This document shows, in pieces, positions 17,194 through 32,000 of a stretch of 32,000 nucleotides of DNA. Within the stretch, counting starts at the first letter, position 1; each line of letters starts with the position of its first letter. A program made the translations under genes and the position numbers. A model generated the notes under the pieces. The model had not been told where the DNA came from, did no database searches, and worked only from the letters and a program-made list of their open reading frames with translations. Source of the stretch: Saccharolobus solfataricus (GTDB lineage Archaea > Thermoproteota > Thermoprotei_A > Sulfolobales > Sulfolobaceae); the NCBI RefSeq assembly GCF_900079115.1, contig NZ_LT549890.1:1050001-1082000 (forward strand), in the 5' to 3' direction.

Positions 17194-19260
17194 ATGATAC
17201 AAGAGCATTTACCTCTTATAACTGGCAAAGGTAGTTATATAGATGATATTAATCCGAAGAATGTAGTTTACCTTCACATAATTAGATCTCCAATAGCTAG
17301 GGGTATAATAAAGAGTATATCCAAACCGGAAAGCGCACTCTTATCGTTAACATGGGAAGATGTGAAATTATACATGCCAGTGAGGCTATTTCCAGACCTA
17401 GCTAAAACTGCACAAGTTGCTAAAATGCCAGTATTGGCTGATGGTAGGGTCAACTTCGTAGGTCAACCAATTTTAGCATTTGTGGTTGAAGATAGGTACA
17501 GGACTGAGGACGTTGCAGAGGAAGTTTTAATTGATTATGACGAATTAAAGCCAGTAGTTGATCCTGAGGAATCCTTAAATGCGGATCCCATTCATCCAGG
17601 TTTAAAAAGTAACATCTCCATAGATCAACTTTTAGAAGGGGGAAACTTATCATTAAAAAATAAGGCTGAGGTTGTTGTAAGTAGGAAACTTAAGCAACAA
17701 AGGGTAGTTTCAAATCCAATGGAACCAAAAGGTTTCATCTGTTGGTGGGATAATGATATACTAAACGTTTACGTTTCCACACAAGCACCGTTTGGAGTAA
17801 AGAATGATCTAAGGGAAATTTTAGGTATTTCTCCAGAAAAGATAAGAGTTTATTCCGCGCCTAACGTAGGAGGAGGATTTGGGAATAAGAGTGGGGGATA
17901 CCCAGAATATGTCCTAGCAGCGATAGCTTCCTTGAAGCTTGGTAGGCCAGTTAAATGGATAGAAACTAGAAGTGAAATGCTAGTCAATACTCAATCCTTA
18001 GGTAGAGGGGAGGTATCAGATATGAGACTTTATGCTACCAAGGACGGTGAGATTTTAGGAATAGAAGGCACTATAATAGCAAATATAGGTGCTTTCGATT
18101 ACGGAATAGGCTTCATTGCTCCTTTATTTATTGCGAGACTATCTAATGGTCCCTATAAGATGAAATTCGCATCGATAAGAGCAATGGGAGTATTTACTAA
18201 CACTCCTCCAATGGGATTTTATAGGGGTGCTGGTAGACCAGAGGCTGCTTTAATTCATGAGACTTTGGTTGAGGATTTGGCTGAGGAGTTGGGTGTGGAT
18301 TCTGTTGAGATTAGGAGGAGGAATTTGATTGGTGATAATGGTTATGTTACTCCTTTGGGTGTTAGGATTGATCCTGCTGGTTATAATGAGGTGTTGAATG
18401 AGGCTGAGAAGTATTATAGGAAGGCTAAGGAGGTTTATAAGGACAAGGGAGTTTCAATAGTTACGTTCGCCGAGATAGTCAGAACTTCGCCAGGTGAAGG
18501 TGCTAGAGTTAAGATAGAAAACGGTAAAGTACATTTTTACTTGGGAATAGGTCCACATGGTCAAGCTTATGGTAGCACATTCAAGAGACTGGCATCTGAA
18601 GTACTAGGTATAAGTGAAGATAAAATAGAGATAACTACTGGTAGTTCTGAGATAGTTAAAGAGGGAATAGGTAGTTTCGGTTCTAGGGCAGGCACTATAG
18701 GAGGTTCTGCCGTGATAGCTGCTGCAACTGAATTACTCAAGAAGTTGAATACTAATTCTTTAAATGAGAGTGAACTAGTTAAGTATGAAGGTGTTGAGGC
18801 TGAAGTGTTCTATAAAGCTGATGATATCTTTGCCCCAGGAGCTCACGTAGCTGTAATTGATGTAGATAAGGAGACTGGATTTATTAGAGTTTTGGAGTAT
18901 TACGCTGTTGATGATGTTGGTAGAGCTATGAATAAGGAAGAGATAGAGGGACAAATAATTGGAAGTGTCCTACAAGGGGCATCACAAGTTATAATTGAAG
19001 CTATGAGATATGATGAGAGGGGAATCCCATTATGTTCCTCAATTGCAGATTGTGGAGTTCCAACAGCTTTGGAAGCTCCTTTAAAGGTAAAAACTGAGTA
19101 TATAGAGTATCCCTCTCAGCTTTTGTCCAGAAGTAGAGGTGTAGGAGAGGCCGGCACGACCGGCGCTTTACCAGCTGTTTTCATAGCAGTGGAAAAGGTT
19201 ACTAAAAAGAAGTTTGATAGAACCCCCGTAGATCCTTGGATATTAGTTTCCTCTACATAA
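17194..19260 (+). CDS. Molybdopterin hydroxylase large subunit (xanthine dehydrogenase/aldehyde oxidase family, non-form-I)
   Basis: GKGSYIDDI...IIRSPIARG N terminus, GGGFGNK, active-site loop GFYRGAGRPEA, GVGEAGTTGA near the C terminus. 688 aa. No adjacent small or medium subunit genes. Confidence 0.85.
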   Translation: MIQEHLPLITGKGSYIDDINPKNVVYLHIIRSPIARGIIKSISKPESALLSLTWEDVKLYMPVRLFPDLAKTAQVAKMPVLADGRVNFVGQPILAFVVEDRYRTEDVAEEVLIDYDELKPVVDPEESLNADPIHPGLKSNISIDQLLEGGNLSLKNKAEVVVSRKLKQQRVVSNPMEPKGFICWWDNDILNVYVSTQAPFGVKNDLREILGISPEKIRVYSAPNVGGGFGNKSGGYPEYVLAAIASLKLGRPVKWIETRSEMLVNTQSLGRGEVSDMRLYATKDGEILGIEGTIIANIGAFDYGIGFIAPLFIARLSNGPYKMKFASIRAMGVFTNTPPMGFYRGAGRPEAALIHETLVEDLAEELGVDSVEIRRRNLIGDNGYVTPLGVRIDPAGYNEVLNEAEKYYRKAKEVYKDKGVSIVTFAEIVRTSPGEGARVKIENGKVHFYLGIGPHGQAYGSTFKRLASEVLGISEDKIEITTGSSEIVKEGIGSFGSRAGTIGGSAVIAAATELLKKLNTNSLNESELVKYEGVEAEVFYKADDIFAPGAHVAVIDVDKETGFIRVLEYYAVDDVGRAMNKEEIEGQIIGSVLQGASQVIIEAMRYDERGIPLCSSIADCGVPTALEAPLKVKTEYIEYPSQLLSRSRGVGEAGTTGALPAVFIAVEKVTKKKFDRTPVDPWILVSST

Positions 19261-22765: not shown

Positions 22766-22879
22766 TAGGATTTACTAACTTAAAGTTAGGTCCTTTTAAT
22801 TCTTACTATAAAATTTACCCTCCTAATATTTAATGTAACATTTTCTCTTCTCAAAATTGTAACATCTAAACACTTTATC

Positions 22880-23204
22880 TTAACGGGGGTTAAGGGATCT
22901 TCCGCCCCCTTCCTCAAGGGGATGGATAGCCCCCTTATATAAAAGTTTTTTAACTAATCTAATCATATATTTCTTACATGATAGTTACCAATGGAGTAAG
23001 CGTCACCGAGACGCCTTGGTTAAAGCGAGGGTCAATGAGGTACGCCTCTGCTCCAGACAGTAGCCCCAAAGGCGGTAACAGTGTCATGGTTAATGAGTTT
23101 CGTTCGGGGTCGGAACGACCCTTAGTGTGGAGCTCTGCCCTCTACCGCTGGCAAGGTGGGGGTATGAGGCAGGAAGCCTTGTCCGTTAGGGCAGGGCAGT
23201 TCAC
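22880..23204 (+). mobile_element. tnpB-less IS200/IS605-derived element (MITE-like); left boundary uncertain
   Basis: GC-rich hairpins (for example CCCCTT-CCTC-AAGGGG at 22906-22921), a TATA-like TTATATAAAA (22935-22944), then a structured GC-rich segment. That segment ends in the same right-end sequence, with terminal TCAC, as the element at 1-934. Confidence 0.45.
23104..23204 (+). ncRNA. Orphan copy of the TnpB right-end / omega-RNA-like scaffold
   Basis: CGGGGTCGGAACGACCCTTAGTGTGGAGCTCTGCCCTCTACC...GGCAAGGTGGGG...GCAGGAAGC... aligns with 829-934. Similarity stops after TCAC in both copies. The 22978-23214 ORF is a by-product of this similarity. Confidence 0.4.
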
Positions 23205-23447
23205 TCTGGCATAGCTAGTGGAGACTACTTTCCCATTTTCAAATACCTAAACCAGTAAACACTAATTCCATCTCGTCTACAACATAAATGCTACTAGGTG
23301 ATTTAGTATCAACCTACGCCAATGCTATTATTGGACGCACTTTATATGACTGTATATTACTTTTTAAATGTTAATAATTTAAGTTTTTACTAAATATAAT
23401 GAAGATTTTATTAACCCCGATACGAAAAGTAAATTGGTGAGTAAAAA

Positions 23448-23681
23448 GTGAGTAGTCTTAAGATATATAAGGAATTGGATTTGACTAGTTCTTCGTGTGC
23501 TGGGCCTATTGGTGAGTTGTCCAGTGTTATTGATGAGTTGAGGGATGGCGAGGCTGTTAAGGTCATTTTGGGTGATGAGGCCACTAAGAAGGACATTACT
23601 TTGTGGAGTAAGAAGAAGGGCTTGAAAATAGTACAAGAGTCGCAAGAGGGAAGCAAGTACGTATTATTAATAAGCAAATAA
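23448..23681 (+). CDS. TusA/SirA-like sulfurtransferase
   Basis: 77 aa. LDLTSSSCAGPIGEL corresponds to the TusA active-site Cys loop, with CAGP in place of CPxP. The two-layer alpha/beta pattern continues with EAVKVILGDEATKKDI. Confidence 0.65.
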   Translation: MSSLKIYKELDLTSSSCAGPIGELSSVIDELRDGEAVKVILGDEATKKDITLWSKKKGLKIVQESQEGSKYVLLISK

Positions 23682-23685
23682 GGAA

Positions 23686-24729
23686 TTAGGTTACTTTTCT
23701 TTTTTCTCTCCTATTTTTATTCAAAAGGAGTGTATTAGGTGAAGTTAACATATGGACGTATTTTAGGGCAATTTTTATGCTCTTTATGTCTGGTGTAAAT
23801 GAAGGTTTATCCATTAATGGGTTAATCCAGATGATAGAGTTACACCTTTGTTTTATAATTTTCAACTCTCTTTCTAATAACTCTAATTCACCTAAATCCC
23901 ATCCATCGCTAAATATTACAACACTACATTTCCTGAATAGTAATTCGCCATAGTTTTTCCTTAGATTATATAAGGCTTCTCCTATTCTCGTTCCACTTCC
24001 ATAAGATACTAGGGAGATTATTTTTTTCACATCAATCTCGTCTATTCTGCTTACTTGGAAAAATTTTGTAACTCTTCTCATATCAGTACTAAAGTAGAAT
24101 ATTTCAGCTCTATTAGTAACTCTTCTAGTAAAGAACGAGAGTAATAGTATTTCCTTAATATAGTCCTTCATTGAACCTGATATATCGCATAATAATACCA
24201 TGTATGATTTATTTATTTTCCTCCTATGTTTAATAAGATATGGCGATTCTAATGAGTATTTTATTTCATCCCTTATTGTCATTCTTACATCTATTTCCCC
24301 GTTATCATTAACTTTGAATCTATGTCCCTCATAATTTAGTGTAATTTCCTTGAGCCTCTTTGCTATTTTACTCCATTTTATCATGTCACTATTTTCTATA
24401 TTGAATAAAATTGTCTTAATTTTAGATTCAGCTGGACTATACATGTAAAGTTCATTGGTTAAATATGGCCTATCAGTTACTTTACCCAGAACTGAATATT
24501 TATTTTCAATTTCTTGTCTTTCATCTAGTCTATCTTTATCTATTGCAAAATCTTTTATCATTGTTGCCTTTAGTACTGCCTTAATGGTCTCAAAATCTCT
24601 GTCTTTTATTAATTTTAGTGAATTTATCGTGTCTATAGTCTCATCTACTCCAACATTCCTACCTAATTGTCTGATAATATTAGCTATCTTTATTATTTTC
24701 TTTTCTTCTTCCATTTTTAATTCCCTCAA
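23686..24729 (-). CDS. coxE: VWA-domain protein, CoxE-like
   Basis: MIDAS motif LLCDISGSM...GSGTRIG...FSDGWD. Immediately downstream of the MoxR ATPase. The 50-nt overlap shrinks if the Met at 24714 is the start. Confidence 0.75.
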   Translation of the reverse strand: MRELKMEEEKKIIKIANIIRQLGRNVGVDETIDTINSLKLIKDRDFETIKAVLKATMIKDFAIDKDRLDERQEIENKYSVLGKVTDRPYLTNELYMYSPAESKIKTILFNIENSDMIKWSKIAKRLKEITLNYEGHRFKVNDNGEIDVRMTIRDEIKYSLESPYLIKHRRKINKSYMVLLCDISGSMKDYIKEILLLSFFTRRVTNRAEIFYFSTDMRRVTKFFQVSRIDEIDVKKIISLVSYGSGTRIGEALYNLRKNYGELLFRKCSVVIFSDGWDLGELELLERELKIIKQRCNSIIWINPLMDKPSFTPDIKSIKIALKYVHMLTSPNTLLLNKNRREKRKVT

Positions 24730-25555
24730 AATGCCTTATATCATCCTCATCCTTAAGCAAAACATTTACCACTAAACTCTTTATATCCTCCTCGGATTCC
24801 GCACCTAGTAAGTTTATCGCATTAACTAGATCTATAGTCTCAGCTATTCCGGGTTTATGTAATATTTCTTCATCTTGTCTAACACTATTCACTATTTTAA
24901 TGACCTTTCTAGCTTTCTCCACGTCTATTTCTCTAACTTTTCTTCTTACTATTTCTAACTCCTTTTCCTCATCTGGATAATTCAAGTATAGGTAAAGGCA
25001 TCTTCTTTTAAGTGCGTCTGAAAGGTCTCTAGTCTTATTAGACGTTATGAACACAAATGGTTTATCTTTAGCTTTTATGGTTCCCAACTCTGGAATAGTT
25101 ACTTGAAATTCCCCTAGAAATTCTAGTAAAAATCCCTCGAATTCAGGATCAGCTCTATCAATTTCATCAATTAATAAAACCACTCTCTTATCACTTTTTA
25201 TAGCTTTCAATAATGGTCTCTCAATTAGAAATTCCTCACTATATATTCTTTTCTTAACTTCATTCTCATCCACTTGCTGCATCATTTTAATTTCTAATAA
25301 CTGTTTTGGATAATTCCACTCATAAAGGGCATGAGTGTAATCTAGACCTTCATAACATTGCAGTCTTATTAAGTCTAAGTCCAGCACTTTAGCTATAACC
25401 TTAGCTAGTTCCGTTTTTCCACAACCTGGCGGTCCTTCTACAAGCAAAGGCTTTTCTAACTTCAAAGCAAGGAATACCGCTATAGCTGACTTTCTATCAA
25501 TTATATAGTCCTTTTCGGCAAGCAATCTAATTAATTCATCTACACTGTTAAGCAT
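24680..25555 (-). CDS. coxD: MoxR-family AAA+ ATPase, CoxD-like
   Basis: Walker A GPPGCGKTELAK, Walker B VLLIDEIDRADPE, 291 aa, follows coxL. Confidence 0.8.
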   Translation of the reverse strand: MLNSVDELIRLLAEKDYIIDRKSAIAVFLALKLEKPLLVEGPPGCGKTELAKVIAKVLDLDLIRLQCYEGLDYTHALYEWNYPKQLLEIKMMQQVDENEVKKRIYSEEFLIERPLLKAIKSDKRVVLLIDEIDRADPEFEGFLLEFLGEFQVTIPELGTIKAKDKPFVFITSNKTRDLSDALKRRCLYLYLNYPDEEKELEIVRRKVREIDVEKARKVIKIVNSVRQDEEILHKPGIAETIDLVNAINLLGAESEEDIKSLVVNVLLKDEDDIRHFEGIKNGRRKENNKDS

Positions 25556-25628
25556 AATTTATAACACCTATAGAAATAAATTGAATAGAGTACAGAAAAA
25601 CGTTTTATTAATTGATATCTTCCTATTA

Positions 25629-27986
25629 TTACTCATCAGACGCTACTCCTTTCTCCTTGAGAACCTTCCAAACTTTCCACGGCCATATGGGCATGTCAAT
25701 ATGTTTAACTCCTAAATCCCATAAGGCGTCAACTACTGCATTCACAAATGCCGCTGGGGATCCTACAGTAGCTGACTCTCCTACTCCTTTAGCACCTAAA
25801 GGATGATGTGGTGATGGTGTCACAGTCTTATCTAATTCCCATTTAGGTGTTTCAACCGCAGTAGGTATTAGGTATTCGGCGAAGCTTCCTCCATAAATGT
25901 TTCCATTCTCGTCATAACGTATTTCCTCCATGAAAGCTGTACCAAAACCCATTGTTAGTGCTCCCATTATTTGCCCATCCACAATCACTGGGTTTATTAT
26001 ATTACCACAGTCGTCAACAGCCACAAATCTCCTTACCTTAACTTGTCCAGTTCCCTTATCTATATCCACTACACAGATATAAGCTCCAAATGGGAATGTC
26101 ATATTTGGAGGGTTATAATACGTTACTGCTTCAAGTCCTGCTTCAACGTTAGGTGGTGGGTTAGTATACGCAGCAAGTGCAACATCTTGGATAGTTTTAT
26201 ATTTGTCTGGATAGCCTTTAACGTAAAACTTGCCCTTTTCAAATACTATATCCTCTTCTCTGGCTTCAAGTAAATGAGCTGCTATTTTTTTAGCCTTATC
26301 TAAAATCTTTCTAGAAGCTACAGCGGCAGCAGCACCTGCTGTAGGTGTACTACGACTTGCGTAGGTACCTAAACCATATGGACAAGTATCTGTATCACCC
26401 TCTTCTACTATTATGTCCTCTACTGGGATGCCTAATATTTCAGAGATTATTTGGGCATATGTCGTCTCATGCCCTTGACCTTGTGCTCGTGTTCCAAATC
26501 TAGCTATGACTTTTCCAGTTGGATGTATCCTAATTTCAGCACTATCGAACATTTTAATACCGACTATATCAAACAGATCAGCTGGACCAGCCCCTACTAT
26601 TTCCACAAAAGTGCTAATTCCTATGCCCATAAGTTCTCCCTTCTTTCTCTTCTCCTCTTGCTCCTTTCTTAACTCGTAATATCCTATCTTTTCCATTGCT
26701 TTCTTTAACGCTGAAGCGTAGTTTCCACTATCATAAGTCCAACCAAGTGCGGATCTATATGGAAACTTCTCTGGAGGGATGAAGTTCTTTAGTCTTAATT
26801 CTGCAGGATCCATATGTAATTCGTGTGCTAAAATATCAACTAATCTCTCTATTGTGTAAGAGGCTTCTGTTACTCTGAATGAACACCTATATGCTATACC
26901 ACCAGCTGGCTTGTTAGTATAAGCTCCAGTAACCTCAACATACGCAGCCTTTATATCATAAGCACCAGTACAAATACTAAATAACCCTGCTGGGAATTTG
27001 CTTGGATTTGCATCACCATAAAACGCTCCATGGTCACTTATCACTTTAATTCTAAGTCCCAAGATAGTACCATCCTTCTTAGCGGCCAATTCACCATGGA
27101 TGTGGAAGTCCCTTGCGAATGCTGTGCTTCTCATATCTTCTGATCTAGTGTTTATCCATTTAACTGGTCTTCCTAATTTTACTGATGCGTAGGCTGAAAC
27201 TACATATCCGGGATAGACATATACTTTGCCACCAAATCCTCCTCCTATATCTGGTGACACTATCCTTATCTTGTTTTCAGGAATTTTAGTTACCATTGAG
27301 AACACCGTCCTAACGACGTGAGGAGCTTGAGTAGTCATCCATAGGGTTAACTTTCCAGAAACTGGGTCATAATGCGCTATTGACCCCACTGGCTCCATAT
27401 AGGCCACATGTAGACGCTGATAATAGAAGTCTTGGCTCACTACAATATCCGCTTCTTTAAATATTTTTTCAGTAACCTCTTTATTGCCAGCTTCCCATCT
27501 AAATACTAGATTAGATTTCTTATCTGGCCTAACAATAGGAGAATTGGGCTCTAACGCTTTTTTAGGATCGATTACTGGTTCTAACGGCTCATATTCTATT
27601 TCTACTTGATTTGCAGCATCCATCGCTGCATACTTATCCTCAGCTATTATGGCCACTACTTCTTGCCCTTGAAACACTACTTTATCGGTTGGCAAAACCA
27701 TCATTTTATCTCCCATTAACGTTGGGATCCAAGCTAGTCCAGCTTTATCTAGCTCTTCTCCAGTAATTATATCAATAACTCCCGGTATAGACTTAGCTTT
27801 CTCGACACTAATTTTCTTTATTTTTGCATGAGCGTACGGACTTCTTACGAAAACTAGATATGCCATATTAGGTAGTTTTATATCGTCAACGTAAGTTCCC
27901 TTACCCATTAAAAATCTAACATCCTCTTTACGCCTTATCTTATGTCCCATACCGTGAACTCCAATTGGCGGTAAGGTTTCTTCCAT
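25629..27986 (-). CDS. coxL: Aerobic-type CO dehydrogenase large subunit (molybdopterin), form-I active-site loop
   Basis: 785 aa. GGGFGGK. Loop GGIAYRCSFRVTEASY contains the AYXCSFR signature. C-terminal GAKGVGESATVGSPAA. Confidence 0.85.
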   Translation of the reverse strand: MEETLPPIGVHGMGHKIRRKEDVRFLMGKGTYVDDIKLPNMAYLVFVRSPYAHAKIKKISVEKAKSIPGVIDIITGEELDKAGLAWIPTLMGDKMMVLPTDKVVFQGQEVVAIIAEDKYAAMDAANQVEIEYEPLEPVIDPKKALEPNSPIVRPDKKSNLVFRWEAGNKEVTEKIFKEADIVVSQDFYYQRLHVAYMEPVGSIAHYDPVSGKLTLWMTTQAPHVVRTVFSMVTKIPENKIRIVSPDIGGGFGGKVYVYPGYVVSAYASVKLGRPVKWINTRSEDMRSTAFARDFHIHGELAAKKDGTILGLRIKVISDHGAFYGDANPSKFPAGLFSICTGAYDIKAAYVEVTGAYTNKPAGGIAYRCSFRVTEASYTIERLVDILAHELHMDPAELRLKNFIPPEKFPYRSALGWTYDSGNYASALKKAMEKIGYYELRKEQEEKRKKGELMGIGISTFVEIVGAGPADLFDIVGIKMFDSAEIRIHPTGKVIARFGTRAQGQGHETTYAQIISEILGIPVEDIIVEEGDTDTCPYGLGTYASRSTPTAGAAAAVASRKILDKAKKIAAHLLEAREEDIVFEKGKFYVKGYPDKYKTIQDVALAAYTNPPPNVEAGLEAVTYYNPPNMTFPFGAYICVVDIDKGTGQVKVRRFVAVDDCGNIINPVIVDGQIMGALTMGFGTAFMEEIRYDENGNIYGGSFAEYLIPTAVETPKWELDKTVTPSPHHPLGAKGVGESATVGSPAAFVNAVVDALWDLGVKHIDMPIWPWKVWKVLKEKGVASDE

Positions 27987-27987
27987 C

Positions 27988-28479
27988 CTAACTCATCTCC
28001 CTCATTTTCTCAGAAGCATATTTTATGGCTTCAACAATATTCTGATATCCAGTACATCTGCATAAATTTCCAGAGATACCCCATCTTATCTCTTCCTCCG
28101 TTGGATTTGGATTCCTTTTAAGTAATTGATACGCGGCCATTATCATTCCAGGAGTACAATAACCGCATTGCAACCCATGCTTAACCCAAAATCCTTCTTG
28201 TATTGGGTGTAATTTACCATCTCTAGCTAAACCCTCTATAGTTAGCACTTCCTTTCCATTAGCTTGAACTGCAAATATAGTACACGATTTTGCTGCTTTA
28301 CCATTAAGAATTACCGTACAAGCGCCGCAGTTTGTTGTATCGCATCCTACATGAGTTCCGGTTAGTCCTGCAACCTCCCTAATAAAATGTACTAATAATA
28401 ATCTTGGCTCTATATCGGCCTCATAAGGCTTTCCATTAATCGTTATTCTCACGTGAACCTTCTGAGCCACTTTAAGCAC
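27988..28479 (-). CDS. coxS: CO dehydrogenase / molybdopterin hydroxylase small subunit, 2x[2Fe-2S]
   Basis: [12 protein letters not shown]...C and CGYCTPGM...CRCTGY motifs, 163 aa. Confidence 0.9.
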
Positions 28480-29350
28480 CTCCCAATACTCTTCTCAAGC
28501 TATGTCTAATTGCCCTTATTGTTAACACTCCAGCCATTGCCTTCTTATAATCTCCAGGGGGACCAAAAGGTTCTTCCACTGGCGTAATCTCTTCAGTAAC
28601 TATTTTTCCAACCTCTTTAATTAGGTTATCATTTATTTTATTCCCCCTCAACAAATTCTCAGCCCTAGTTACCTTTACTGGATTATTTGCGGCTCCTCCT
28701 ATTGCAATCCCAGCATCTTTGACAGTACCATCGTAGTCTAGGGATAAGTTAACTGCAGTGGAAACTATTGCGAAATCTCCAACTCTTCTCTCTAATTTTA
28801 TATAATGACCCCCATTTCTAGGTTGAGGAATTGGAATTCTTACCTCAGTCAAAATTTCATCCGGTCTTAGAGCAGTTTGGAAGGGTCCTAAAAAGAAATC
28901 TTTAGCCTTAATAATCCTACTTCCCGAGAGGCTGGTAGCAACAAATTCAGCGTTATATGCTAGCATTACTGCAGGTAAATTATTTCCGGGATGATTGTAG
29001 CATACATTTCCTCCAACTGTCCCCCAATTCCTAACTATTGGATCAGCTAAATGCTTAATAGCTTCATGAAGTAATGGATACTTAGACTTTATTAAATCTG
29101 AATATTCCAAATCAGAATACCTAGTGAGAGCGCCTATTTTTAAATATCCATCAGATTCAATAATATATGAGAGATTAGGTATATTATTAAGGTCAATTAC
29201 GTACTTAGGAGAGACTATTCTTAATTTCATTGCAATTATCAGACTTTGTCCGCCAGCTAGTACCTTAGCATCTTCGCTATACTTAGAAAGGAACTCTAAT
29301 GCTTCATTAAGAGTGCTCGGAGAAAAATAATCAAATGGTGCAGGATACAC
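28472..29350 (-). CDS. coxM: CO dehydrogenase / molybdopterin hydroxylase medium subunit (FAD-binding)
   Basis: [11 protein letters not shown] motif, TVGGNVC, 292 aa. Overlaps coxS by 8 nt. Confidence 0.9.
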
Positions 29351-29419
29351 TTACCTCACTATGTATCGATTCGTTATATTAGTATAAAAAGGTAATTATG
29401 TCTAATAATACATATTCCA

Positions 29420-30307
29420 TTATTTGACATATATTTGAGGATTACCATCAAATTTATCCTTACAATATTTACTACAGAAATAGTATACTTTACTCCCAAA
29501 AGTTGAATAGTAAGGAACTGACGTAGAGATACTCATCCCACAAACTGGATCAGTAGCCTCATTAGTTTTCTCTTTAACATTCCTTGTATTTGTTTCTCTA
29601 ATATTTGAAATTTTAACTACCTCAGCTAAAACACTTAACGCTATTTCTTCAGGCAATGTAGCGTTTATATCTATCCCCGCAGGAACTTTAATCCTAGAAA
29701 GAGAGTCATCTTTGTAGCCCTTATTACGTAAATATGAAAGTAAATCCTCTCCCCTTCTCTTTCCTGCTATGACTCCAATATACTTTATCCCAGTGTTTAG
29801 AAGAGCTTCTGCAAATTCGTGATCCTTTTCGCCCATTGTAGCTACTATAGCAAAGGTATTTCTGGTTATTTTTACATTTCCTATCTCATTTGTACTATCT
29901 AACTTTATTATGATAAAGCCAAGCATCTCTCCTAATTTCTGAACGTAATGCGTTATAGGGTTATTTCCTACTAAAATAAGCCTTTTCTTAGATAGTAAGG
30001 GCTCTATATATACATGAACAATTCCTCCATGGCAAGTATTTAAGCTTAAATATTTAATTTGACCGTTTTCTATGGCTTCTAACGAATATCTTATTATATC
30101 ATCCCTAGTACAAAATCCCCCTATCCATCCCTCAAAGTTTCCATCACTCTTAACAATTATTTTATTTCCGGGCTTTAAAGAGCTTGGTCCTTCAGTGCTA
30201 ATTACTTCAACAATAGCGAATTCTTCATCATTTTCAATTAATTCCCTAACTCTATTTATAAACTCATAAGAATGGCCAAAGTAGCTAATCTTCTCTTCAT
30301 ACATCAT
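29420..30307 (-). CDS. XdhC/CoxF-family Moco maturation protein fused to a C-terminal YHS/TRASH metal-binding domain
   Basis: XdhC-like N-terminal region (FAIVEVISTEGPSSLKPG) and Rossmann-like LILVGNNPITHY. The last roughly 45 aa, DPVCGMSISTSVPYYSTFGSKVYYFCSKYCKDKF, give C-x21-C-x3-C. Confidence 0.75.
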   Translation of the reverse strand: MMYEEKISYFGHSYEFINRVRELIENDEEFAIVEVISTEGPSSLKPGNKIIVKSDGNFEGWIGGFCTRDDIIRYSLEAIENGQIKYLSLNTCHGGIVHVYIEPLLSKKRLILVGNNPITHYVQKLGEMLGFIIIKLDSTNEIGNVKITRNTFAIVATMGEKDHEFAEALLNTGIKYIGVIAGKRRGEDLLSYLRNKGYKDDSLSRIKVPAGIDINATLPEEIALSVLAEVVKISNIRETNTRNVKEKTNEATDPVCGMSISTSVPYYSTFGSKVYYFCSKYCKDKFDGNPQIYVK

Positions 30308-30385
30308 TACAAATTAATATGAAAATGAGACTATTTAAACTTAATCTCACTATATTTGAAAAACACTAAAGAGAGTTTTAATATT

Positions 30386-31282: not shown

Positions 31283-32000
<718 letters not shown>

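Follow-up and report, generated by a model that had tools for sequence, protein, structure and literature searches.

Aerobic carbon monoxide (CO) dehydrogenase (CODH) belongs to the enzyme class that drives the consumption of atmospheric CO by soil and hot-spring microbes. For the insertion of copper into its buried [CuSMoO2] centre only one model exists, which draws on a single proteobacterial CoxF and on sequence motifs that are weak. This protein, the CoxF of Oligotropha (Afipia) carboxidovorans, consists of an XdhC motif and an XdhC Rossmann domain (Pelzmann et al. 2014, PMC4240915). If either coxE or coxF is mutated in this organism, then the CODH that is formed is folded and its Mo is sulfurated, but Cu is lacking, and both sulfuration and Cu insertion take place on molybdenum cofactor (Moco) that is already within the folded apoenzyme (PMC4240915). 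A Cu site in CoxF (M107CPSHGTM) and a C-terminal phytase motif have been put forward as suggestions only (PMC4240915), and XdhC proteins in general stabilise sulfurated Moco (reviewed in PMC4240915). Closer to the organism considered here, the form I operon of Acidianus brierleyi, which oxidises CO, has been named coxEDLSMF; its CoxS, CoxM and CoxL have been detected in the proteome, and the form I enzyme of the Sulfolobales is inferred to have been acquired from bacteria (Leung et al. 2024, PMC11018855). The main text of that work contains no occurrence of copper, XdhC or a YHS/TRASH tail (PMC11018855). In the present work, we describe the coxF gene at the head of the form I cox operon in a stretch of 32,000 nucleotides from Saccharolobus solfataricus (contig NZ_LT549890.1), which is referred to as the window and from whose first letter positions are counted. 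The product of this gene carries a YHS/TRASH module at its C-terminal end, and from its sequence characteristics it is probably a CoxF-type maturation factor of form I CODH with a putative Cu(I)-delivering YHS tail.

The coxF-YHS gene occupies positions 29420..30307 on the (-) strand, and its assignment as a CoxF-type XdhC-family maturation factor with a C-terminal YHS/TRASH module is based on its open reading frame (ORF), Pfam matches and a phylogenetic tree. The ORF starts with ATG, codes for 295 amino acids (aa) followed by a stop, and has no internal stops. A preliminary description of the window had noted at this location an XdhC-like body followed by a C-x21-C-x3-C tail, and this is confirmed, the cysteines concerned being C256, C278 and C282 (C256-x21-C278-x3-C282). 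Its domain assignments are likewise borne out by Pfam, where all three domains score above their cut-offs, viz. the N-terminal XdhC_CoxI domain (PF02625, residues 24-83, 30059..30238 (-), 49.0 bits vs a cut-off of 24.3), the Rossmann-like XdhC_C domain (PF13478, residues 110-230, 29618..29980 (-), 79.9 bits vs 29.7) and the YHS/TRASH module with the signature DPVCGM...C-x3-C (PF04945, residues 252-294, 29426..29554 (-), 40.7 bits vs 30.3, E 2.3e-10). The YHS stretch also matches Arc_trans_TRASH, at a sub-threshold score of 16.7 bits. The signature spacing of TRASH domains is C-x(19-22)-C-x3-C, which the module in the window fits, and the equivalents of Cys256, Cys278 and Cys282 are invariant across 32 aligned YHS modules. 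The body and the module are joined by a flexible linker (residues 231-251, 29555..29617 (-)), for which the predicted local distance difference test score (pLDDT) in the AlphaFold2 (AF2) model falls below 50 at residues 239-247. The AF2 model of the whole protein (pLDDT 88.3) consists of two folded parts with this disordered linker between them; the XdhC body of the model matches structure 2WE8 (Foldseek E 1.8e-16, TM 0.61 over 252 columns), and its fold also matches 3ON5. Among 74 CoxF-clade sequences, the spacing from an EIALS motif to the first YHS cysteine ranges from 23 to 95 residues, with a median of 33.5. Being variable and predicted to be disordered, the linker would meet the needs of a swinging carrier arm. 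The architecture XdhC_CoxI + XdhC_C + YHS is found in >100 protein clusters, which rules out chance or an assembly artefact as its source. The fusions include one with a wider YHS spacing of C-x26-C (locus L034) and one in which the YHS lies in a long stop-free tail (locus L082).

The relationship of the XdhC body to CoxF was examined in a careful tree, which was constructed by IQ-TREE on the XdhC body alone and was preceded by a quick tree. In this tree the window protein, the other fusions from Sulfolobales and Nitrososphaerota, all of the bacterial fusions and the Oligotropha-type CoxF proteins form one clade (UFboot 95 / SH-aLRT 84), outside of which lie CoxI and a group of paralogues lacking the conserved cysteines. 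Two cysteines are of importance in this regard. The first, C66, is held in a GG-x-C motif within the XdhC_CoxI domain and corresponds in the alignment to GWIGGGC of the Oligotropha protein, and the second, C92 (30032-30034), is held in a T-C-H-G-G motif just upstream of XdhC_C, with the Cys of M107CPSHGTM as its Oligotropha counterpart. Both are invariant in 83 of the 83 CoxF-clade sequences, and one paralogue group has neither. The RHGxRx[PS] phytase motif, on the other hand, is present in only one of these 83 sequences (that of Oligotropha) and the RGD integrin-binding motif in 15, with both being absent from the window protein; neither of them therefore generalises, and RHGxRxP and RGD are proposals for one protein rather than family-defining features. 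In a plasmid collection, the only match on pHCG3 is coxF, the XdhC-family gene that immediately follows coxE (VWA), and the plasmid XdhC homologues mostly end before query residue 256. Many bacterial form I clusters (L012, L018, L021, L026, L034 and others) also contain a second XdhC-like paralogue without the two conserved cysteines, and such paralogues form a separate clade of 16 rows. The second XdhC of the window genome, a 267-aa protein with no hydroxylase neighbour, fell among the CoxF-clade members in the quick tree on a branch of 1.42; however, as this protein lacks both of the cysteines, this placement is unreliable and was rejected.

The preliminary description had also raised the question of whether the fusion co-occurs with CoxL genes of the AYXCSFR type. 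The surveys answer this in the affirmative: the fusion tracks AY(R/A)CSFR, and the XdhC proteins of form II and other hydroxylases are without YHS. Among 401 genomes of Thermoproteota, a CoxL above the form I cut-off is present in three (the window genome, a congener and G145). In all three an XdhC+YHS gene adjoins the form I CoxL, and the fusion is found in no other of the 401 genomes. The CoxL proteins scoring at 750-850 bits in this phylum are of form II (AYRGAGR); a form II locus in G142 has the order S-L-M-D-E followed by a 299-aa XdhC without YHS, and the XdhC proteins neighbouring QYRGAGR hydroxylases also lack YHS. One XdhC match beside a QYRGAGR hydroxylase, in G160, reached residue 282, and it was rejected because it read through a TGA and has no YHS.

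A further 80 loci were chosen by similarity from species-representative genomes. The fusion is present in 70 of these, and in 59 of the 70 the form I loop AY(R/A)CSFR is found in the same locus; ten others are on short or cut contigs, mostly still with coxD and coxE, and the remaining one is considered below. In order to remove the bias of choosing by similarity, another sample was assembled in which form I CoxL genes were picked before CoxF was checked (49 of 251 genomes were over the cut-off, a tally that includes G671, G741, G773 and G892, the sequences of which were left out). In this sample the fusion is present in 19 of 19 form I loci of Chloroflexota, including that on the Thermomicrobium roseum megaplasmid (L130), in 24 of 26 loci of Actinomycetota (with one real absence and one cut contig), and in one of ten loci of Pseudomonadota, the other nine having a short-tailed Oligotropha-type CoxF after coxE. 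Where the CoxL-first loci include an AYRGAGR cluster, none of the XdhC paralogues next to it carries a YHS, and no YHS gene standing alone was detected in these loci. The CoxF of a form I (AYACSFR) cluster in genome G896 (L143) ends right after XdhC_C and has no YHS. Based on these surveys, if the fusion is present then form I is implied almost without exception, but the presence of form I does not imply the fusion. Annotated examples of the fusion are found in Natronorubrum bangense, Deinococcus sp. AJ005 and Paraburkholderia aromaticivorans. Thus, the fusion design is bacterial as much as archaeal, and an archaeal-specific fusion is ruled out by the bacterial loci in both the CoxL-first and the similarity-chosen samples. 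The earlier idea of a compact archaeal solution does not hold, as several bacterial phyla have CoxF predominantly in this fused form, which is present also in a haloarchaeon, a bacterial origin of the Sulfolobales enzyme having been favoured previously (PMC11018855).

A different type of tail is seen in the Rhodothermales, where CoxF in form I clusters has an HMA-type (xMxCxxC) tail at the position of the YHS in eight of eight loci. In one of these (L070:9917-10996) the tail reads GMSCSHC, and the seven further loci (L172-L178) have the arrangement M-S-L(AYRCSFR)-D-E-CoxF with tails reading GMSCxHC, AMSCAHC or EMSCQHC. The architecture PF02625+PF13478+PF00403 is represented by ~22 protein clusters (P0122-P0144). 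These proteins resemble the window protein in having a CoxF body, a place in form I clusters (M-S-L-D-E-F) and a C-terminal Cys-based metal module; however, their module is a ferredoxin-like HMA domain whose fold is unrelated to YHS, and this points to convergent recruitment.

The YHS module of the window protein is itself linked in sequence to copper proteins, as it shows 42% identity (E 7e-15) to the 56-aa protein that the same genome encodes in its cop locus. The DPVCGM block has been used in the design of CopM primers (PMC3595675), deletion of TRASH lowers the Cu sensitivity of CopR (PMC7830388), and archaeal TRASH domains have roles in Cu chaperones and sensors according to Ettema et al., as summarised in PMC3595675 and PMC7830388. 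The near-exclusive association with form I, the swap for HMA in the Rhodothermales and the 42% identity to the cop-locus chaperone together make a role in copper the best-supported reading. Further, as form II clusters share CoxD, CoxE and XdhC with form I clusters, and the tail tracks only the enzyme class which needs Cu, this distribution also points to copper. The preliminary description had envisaged that the fusion couples Cu delivery to the sulfuration or insertion of Moco. The copper part of this proposal is probable on the above grounds, but a link to the insertion of Moco does not fit, since in Oligotropha Moco is already in the folded apoenzyme (PMC4240915).

In the mechanism which we favour, a CoxF body of the XdhC fold, bearing C66 and C92, would hold the 45-residue Cys3 YHS module on a disordered tether of ~20 residues. 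The module would acquire Cu(I), either from a chaperone or from the pool in the cytoplasm, and, as a swinging arm, would pass it either to the CoxF body or straight to the sulfurated Mo of the folded CoxMSL apoenzyme. CoxF-YHS would work in this with CoxD (AAA+) and CoxE (VWA), which are encoded downstream, in finishing the [CuSMoO2] centre. The binding of Cu(I) by the module is what we infer from its identity to the cop-locus protein and from the literature, and the direction and partners of the transfer are likewise putative.

A number of observations weigh against the interpretation of the tail as a copper donor, or restrict its scope. The proteobacterial CoxF proteins, including the only one that has been studied experimentally, work without a YHS, and the module is thus not essential to the mechanism of CoxF. 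The CoxF-like clade also holds XdhC genes which follow coxD-coxE in form II clusters, and it is unresolved inside; due to this, the orthology which the tree indicates is to a CoxF-like subfamily and not strictly to the CoxF of form I. One of the 70 similarity-chosen fusion loci (L088, from an uncultured actinomycetote), for which the full flanks are available, has the fusion (L088:9914-10864) but is devoid of cox genes over the 10 kb to each side of this XdhC+YHS gene. The HMA tail in the Rhodothermales locus L070 scores 22.0 bits vs a Pfam cut-off of 24.8, with the full profile being covered. In addition, the genome contains a free 48-aa YHS-like ORF (G000:C1:2281321-2281467 (-); L008:1495-1641) with four cysteines (CxxC...C-x3-C) and no DPVCGM. 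It lies upstream, by ~90 nt, of two orphan genes without CoxL, coxM (278 aa) and coxS (171 aa). Its adjacency to coxM-coxS is kept in three of five related genera (G110, G223 and G086, but not G313 and G163), and G223 and G086 have the YHS-like ORF and coxM-coxS although they are without form I CoxL. As this mini-gene is found beside a coxM-coxS pair that is not of form I, a YHS near cox genes should not automatically be interpreted as indicating copper. Lastly, the isolated YHS module, which is modelled with a pLDDT of 93.4 as four short strands and a helix, has as its closest solved structures the C-terminal segment of the soluble methane monooxygenase (sMMO) hydroxylase and the YHS-like repeats of AK9, at a weak Z of 5.0. 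Other weak matches are to eL24 (Z 4.0-4.4), small Zn fingers and the Cu chaperone NosL (Z 3.5), all at Z <=5.0. No match was obtained with this module at E <=0.001 in Foldseek, and a sequence search with the isolated peptide against PDB chains gave nothing significant (best E 0.16). The structural matches appear to fit the YHS/TRASH fold class, but they are not decisive and lie below the level that excludes chance, and YHS/TRASH-fold modules are not all copper binders.

Some of these observations would be expected if the YHS were a structural docking domain of the zinc-ribbon type, which attaches CoxF to CoxE, CoxD, CoxL or the membrane and has no part in copper. The solved folds closest to the module (sMMO hydroxylase, eL24, YacG and FCS fingers, all at Z <=5.0) are non-copper, a four-Cys YHS-like mini-ORF is conserved beside the non-form-I coxM-coxS in Sulfolobaceae, and the Oligotropha CoxF is functional without the module. 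However, docking leaves unexplained why the members linked to form I alone carry a YHS, when CoxD, CoxE and XdhC are encoded in form II clusters as well. It also does not account for the Rhodothermales, in which the place of the YHS is taken by HMA, a metal-carrier fold, and the occurrence of two unrelated Cys-based metal-carrier folds at one terminus suggests that docking alone would be hard to fit. Further, the sequence of the module is nearest to the cop-cluster chaperone type (DPVCGM, 42% identity). For these reasons, we regard docking as unlikely. In another interpretation, which we consider rather improbable, the YHS would be a sensor or buffer of copper, which either gates CoxF according to Cu supply or shields the Mo-SH intermediate and the thiols of CoxF from stray metal. 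TRASH is a Cu-sensing module in regulators of the CopR type (PMC7830388, PMC3595675). A link to the Cu-containing class of enzyme is expected equally under this interpretation, and sequence data cannot tell it from a donor role. However, where HMA and YHS modules are attached to enzymes and pumps they serve for the most part in transfer, which counts against it. The suggestion that the Cys3 module handles sulfur or molybdenum, e.g. by relaying persulfide towards the mu-sulfido ligand or by protecting Moco, would extend the classical role of XdhC in stabilising sulfurated Moco and could draw on the requirement for a bridging sulfur at the site and on a TusA-like ORF (23448-23681) converging on coxE, but it is very improbable, as xanthine-oxidase-family enzymes generally need sulfuration, yet no XdhC gene next to the form II or other hydroxylases examined has the module, and to our knowledge neither YHS nor HMA is a sulfur carrier.

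Returning to CoxF-YHS as a donor of copper, the results can be extended into a broader and more tentative proposal, whose chances we place a little short of even. According to this, a Cu(I)-module tethered to CoxF would be the normal, and possibly the ancestral, copper route, with the YHS serving in most phyla and HMA in the Rhodothermales, and this tail would feed C66/C92. The XdhC fold of this subfamily would in this case have been repurposed from Moco handling to copper insertion, and the tail-less proteobacterial CoxF, together with the phytate-based model, would be the exception.

In regard to the genomic context of coxF-YHS in the window, the preliminary description was correct that this gene heads the cox cluster, with the genes for coxM, coxS, coxL and the coxD-like and coxE-like proteins located downstream on the same strand. 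The order is thus coxF-coxM-coxS-coxL(AYRCSFR)-coxD-coxE, with coxF-YHS being the first gene. The flavin adenine dinucleotide (FAD)-binding medium subunit coxM (28472..29350 (-)) is identified by Pfam FAD_binding_5 and CO_deh_flav_C, and the [2Fe-2S] small subunit coxS (27988..28479 (-)) by Fer2_2 and Fer2. The large subunit coxL (25629..27986 (-)) is of form I (Mo-Cu), as it scores 1173.9 bits with TIGR02416 vs a cut-off of 991.15, and its active-site loop AYRCSFR comprises residues 365-371. It is followed by the coxD-like MoxR/AAA+ ATPase (24680..25555 (-); Pfam AAA_5, AAA and AAA_3) and the coxE-like VWA protein (23686..24729 (-); Pfam VWA_CoxE, 115.7 bits), each of which is the sole copy in the genome. 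By sequence inspection, a TATA-like box TTTAAATA is found at 30332..30339 (-), with its centre ~28 nt upstream of the coxF ATG, and a GAGGT motif is seen in front of coxM; together they suggest that coxF-YHS may be the leaderless first gene of one operon. The operon (window 23686-30307) lacks a coxG (SRPBCC) gene and has coxF-YHS as its sole XdhC gene, a coxI-like one being absent. The TusA/SirA-like ORF (77 aa, 23448-23681 (+)), in which SSCAGP replaces the usual CPxP, is convergent with coxE and ends 4 nt from the coxE stop. The region of the window from 22786 to 23214, between the gene for an FAD-linked oxidase and this ORF, is GC-richer and contains no convincing ORF.

The window is part of a complete 3.03-Mb Sulfolobaceae chromosome, which contains nine CoxL-like genes vs three coxM/coxS pairs, and the coxL in the window is the only one of form I. 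There are three XdhC-like genes, of which the one in the window alone carries a YHS and alone adjoins hydroxylase genes. YHS is matched strongly by four further proteins of the genome, viz. the 56-aa protein, encoded between copA and a copR-like regulator, a subunit within a diiron-monooxygenase-like cluster, the product of the free 48-aa ORF and a YHS-Rdx protein encoded just past the end of the window. The orphan coxM-coxS pair has as its neighbours MocA-like and CoxG-like genes, the latter (at ~2.279 Mb) being the sole CoxG-like ORF seen in the genome. A second large-subunit gene for a Mo-hydroxylase is present in the window (17194-19260 (+), 688 aa); it is not of form I, no genes for medium or small subunits adjoin it, and it has a 68% identical paralogue at ~2.73 Mb. 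Just past the end of the window, a gene for a 180-aa protein (G000:C1:1082653-1083195 (+)) joins a YHS (DPVCKM...C-x3-C) to an Rdx/SelW-like CxxC domain; it is divergent from a pyridine-nucleotide-disulfide oxidoreductase gene (window 31283-31999 (-)).

The significance of these results lies in the fact that most CoxF proteins outside Proteobacteria carry a module of the copper-chaperone type, and this, taken with the recruitment of a second, unrelated copper module to the same position, supports from independent genomic data that CoxF is the donor of copper. The tail, with its 45 residues and three cysteines, is also a small, soluble, thermostable and mutable handle, which makes the question of copper insertion biochemically testable, and it may be of help in producing active Mo-Cu CODH in foreign hosts, for which the loading of copper is a bottleneck. 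In a literature search no relevant paper on XdhC, CoxF or CODH with a YHS/TRASH tail was found, papers available by subscription only being outside the search.

When the window protein is compared with the known systems, the CoxF of O. carboxidovorans OM5 (280 aa, encoded on pHCG3, ~24% identity) shares with it the XdhC_CoxI + XdhC_C body, both invariant cysteines and a location in a form I cluster with coxD and coxE, but its chain continues for only 29 residues past the EIALS motif, without a YHS. Its gene follows coxE (M-S-L-D-E-F), whereas that in the window is at the head of the operon, and the order of cox genes varies widely among the loci examined. The TRASH-domain metallochaperone CopM (or CopT) of the Sulfolobales cop cluster has the same type of domain and the same DPVCGM...C-x3-C signature. 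However, in the account of Ettema et al. given in PMC3595675 it is free-standing, is co-transcribed with the Cu-exporting ATPase CopA and functions in detoxification, whereas the module in the window is tethered to an enzyme-maturation factor. Classical XdhC (of the Rhodobacter capsulatus type) and 2WE8 (the Rv0376c homologue from M. smegmatis) have the same fold and belong to the same Pfam families as the CoxF body, but classical XdhC binds and sulfurates Moco before its insertion into apo-xanthine dehydrogenase, and it has no metal-binding tail. The coxF orthologue of A. brierleyi (P0009) shares 63% identity with the window protein, contains all three of its Pfam domains and lies in an operon that is laid out as in the window. 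The gene described here is a gene of a known kind, viz. coxF, in a variant that has so far been undescribed.

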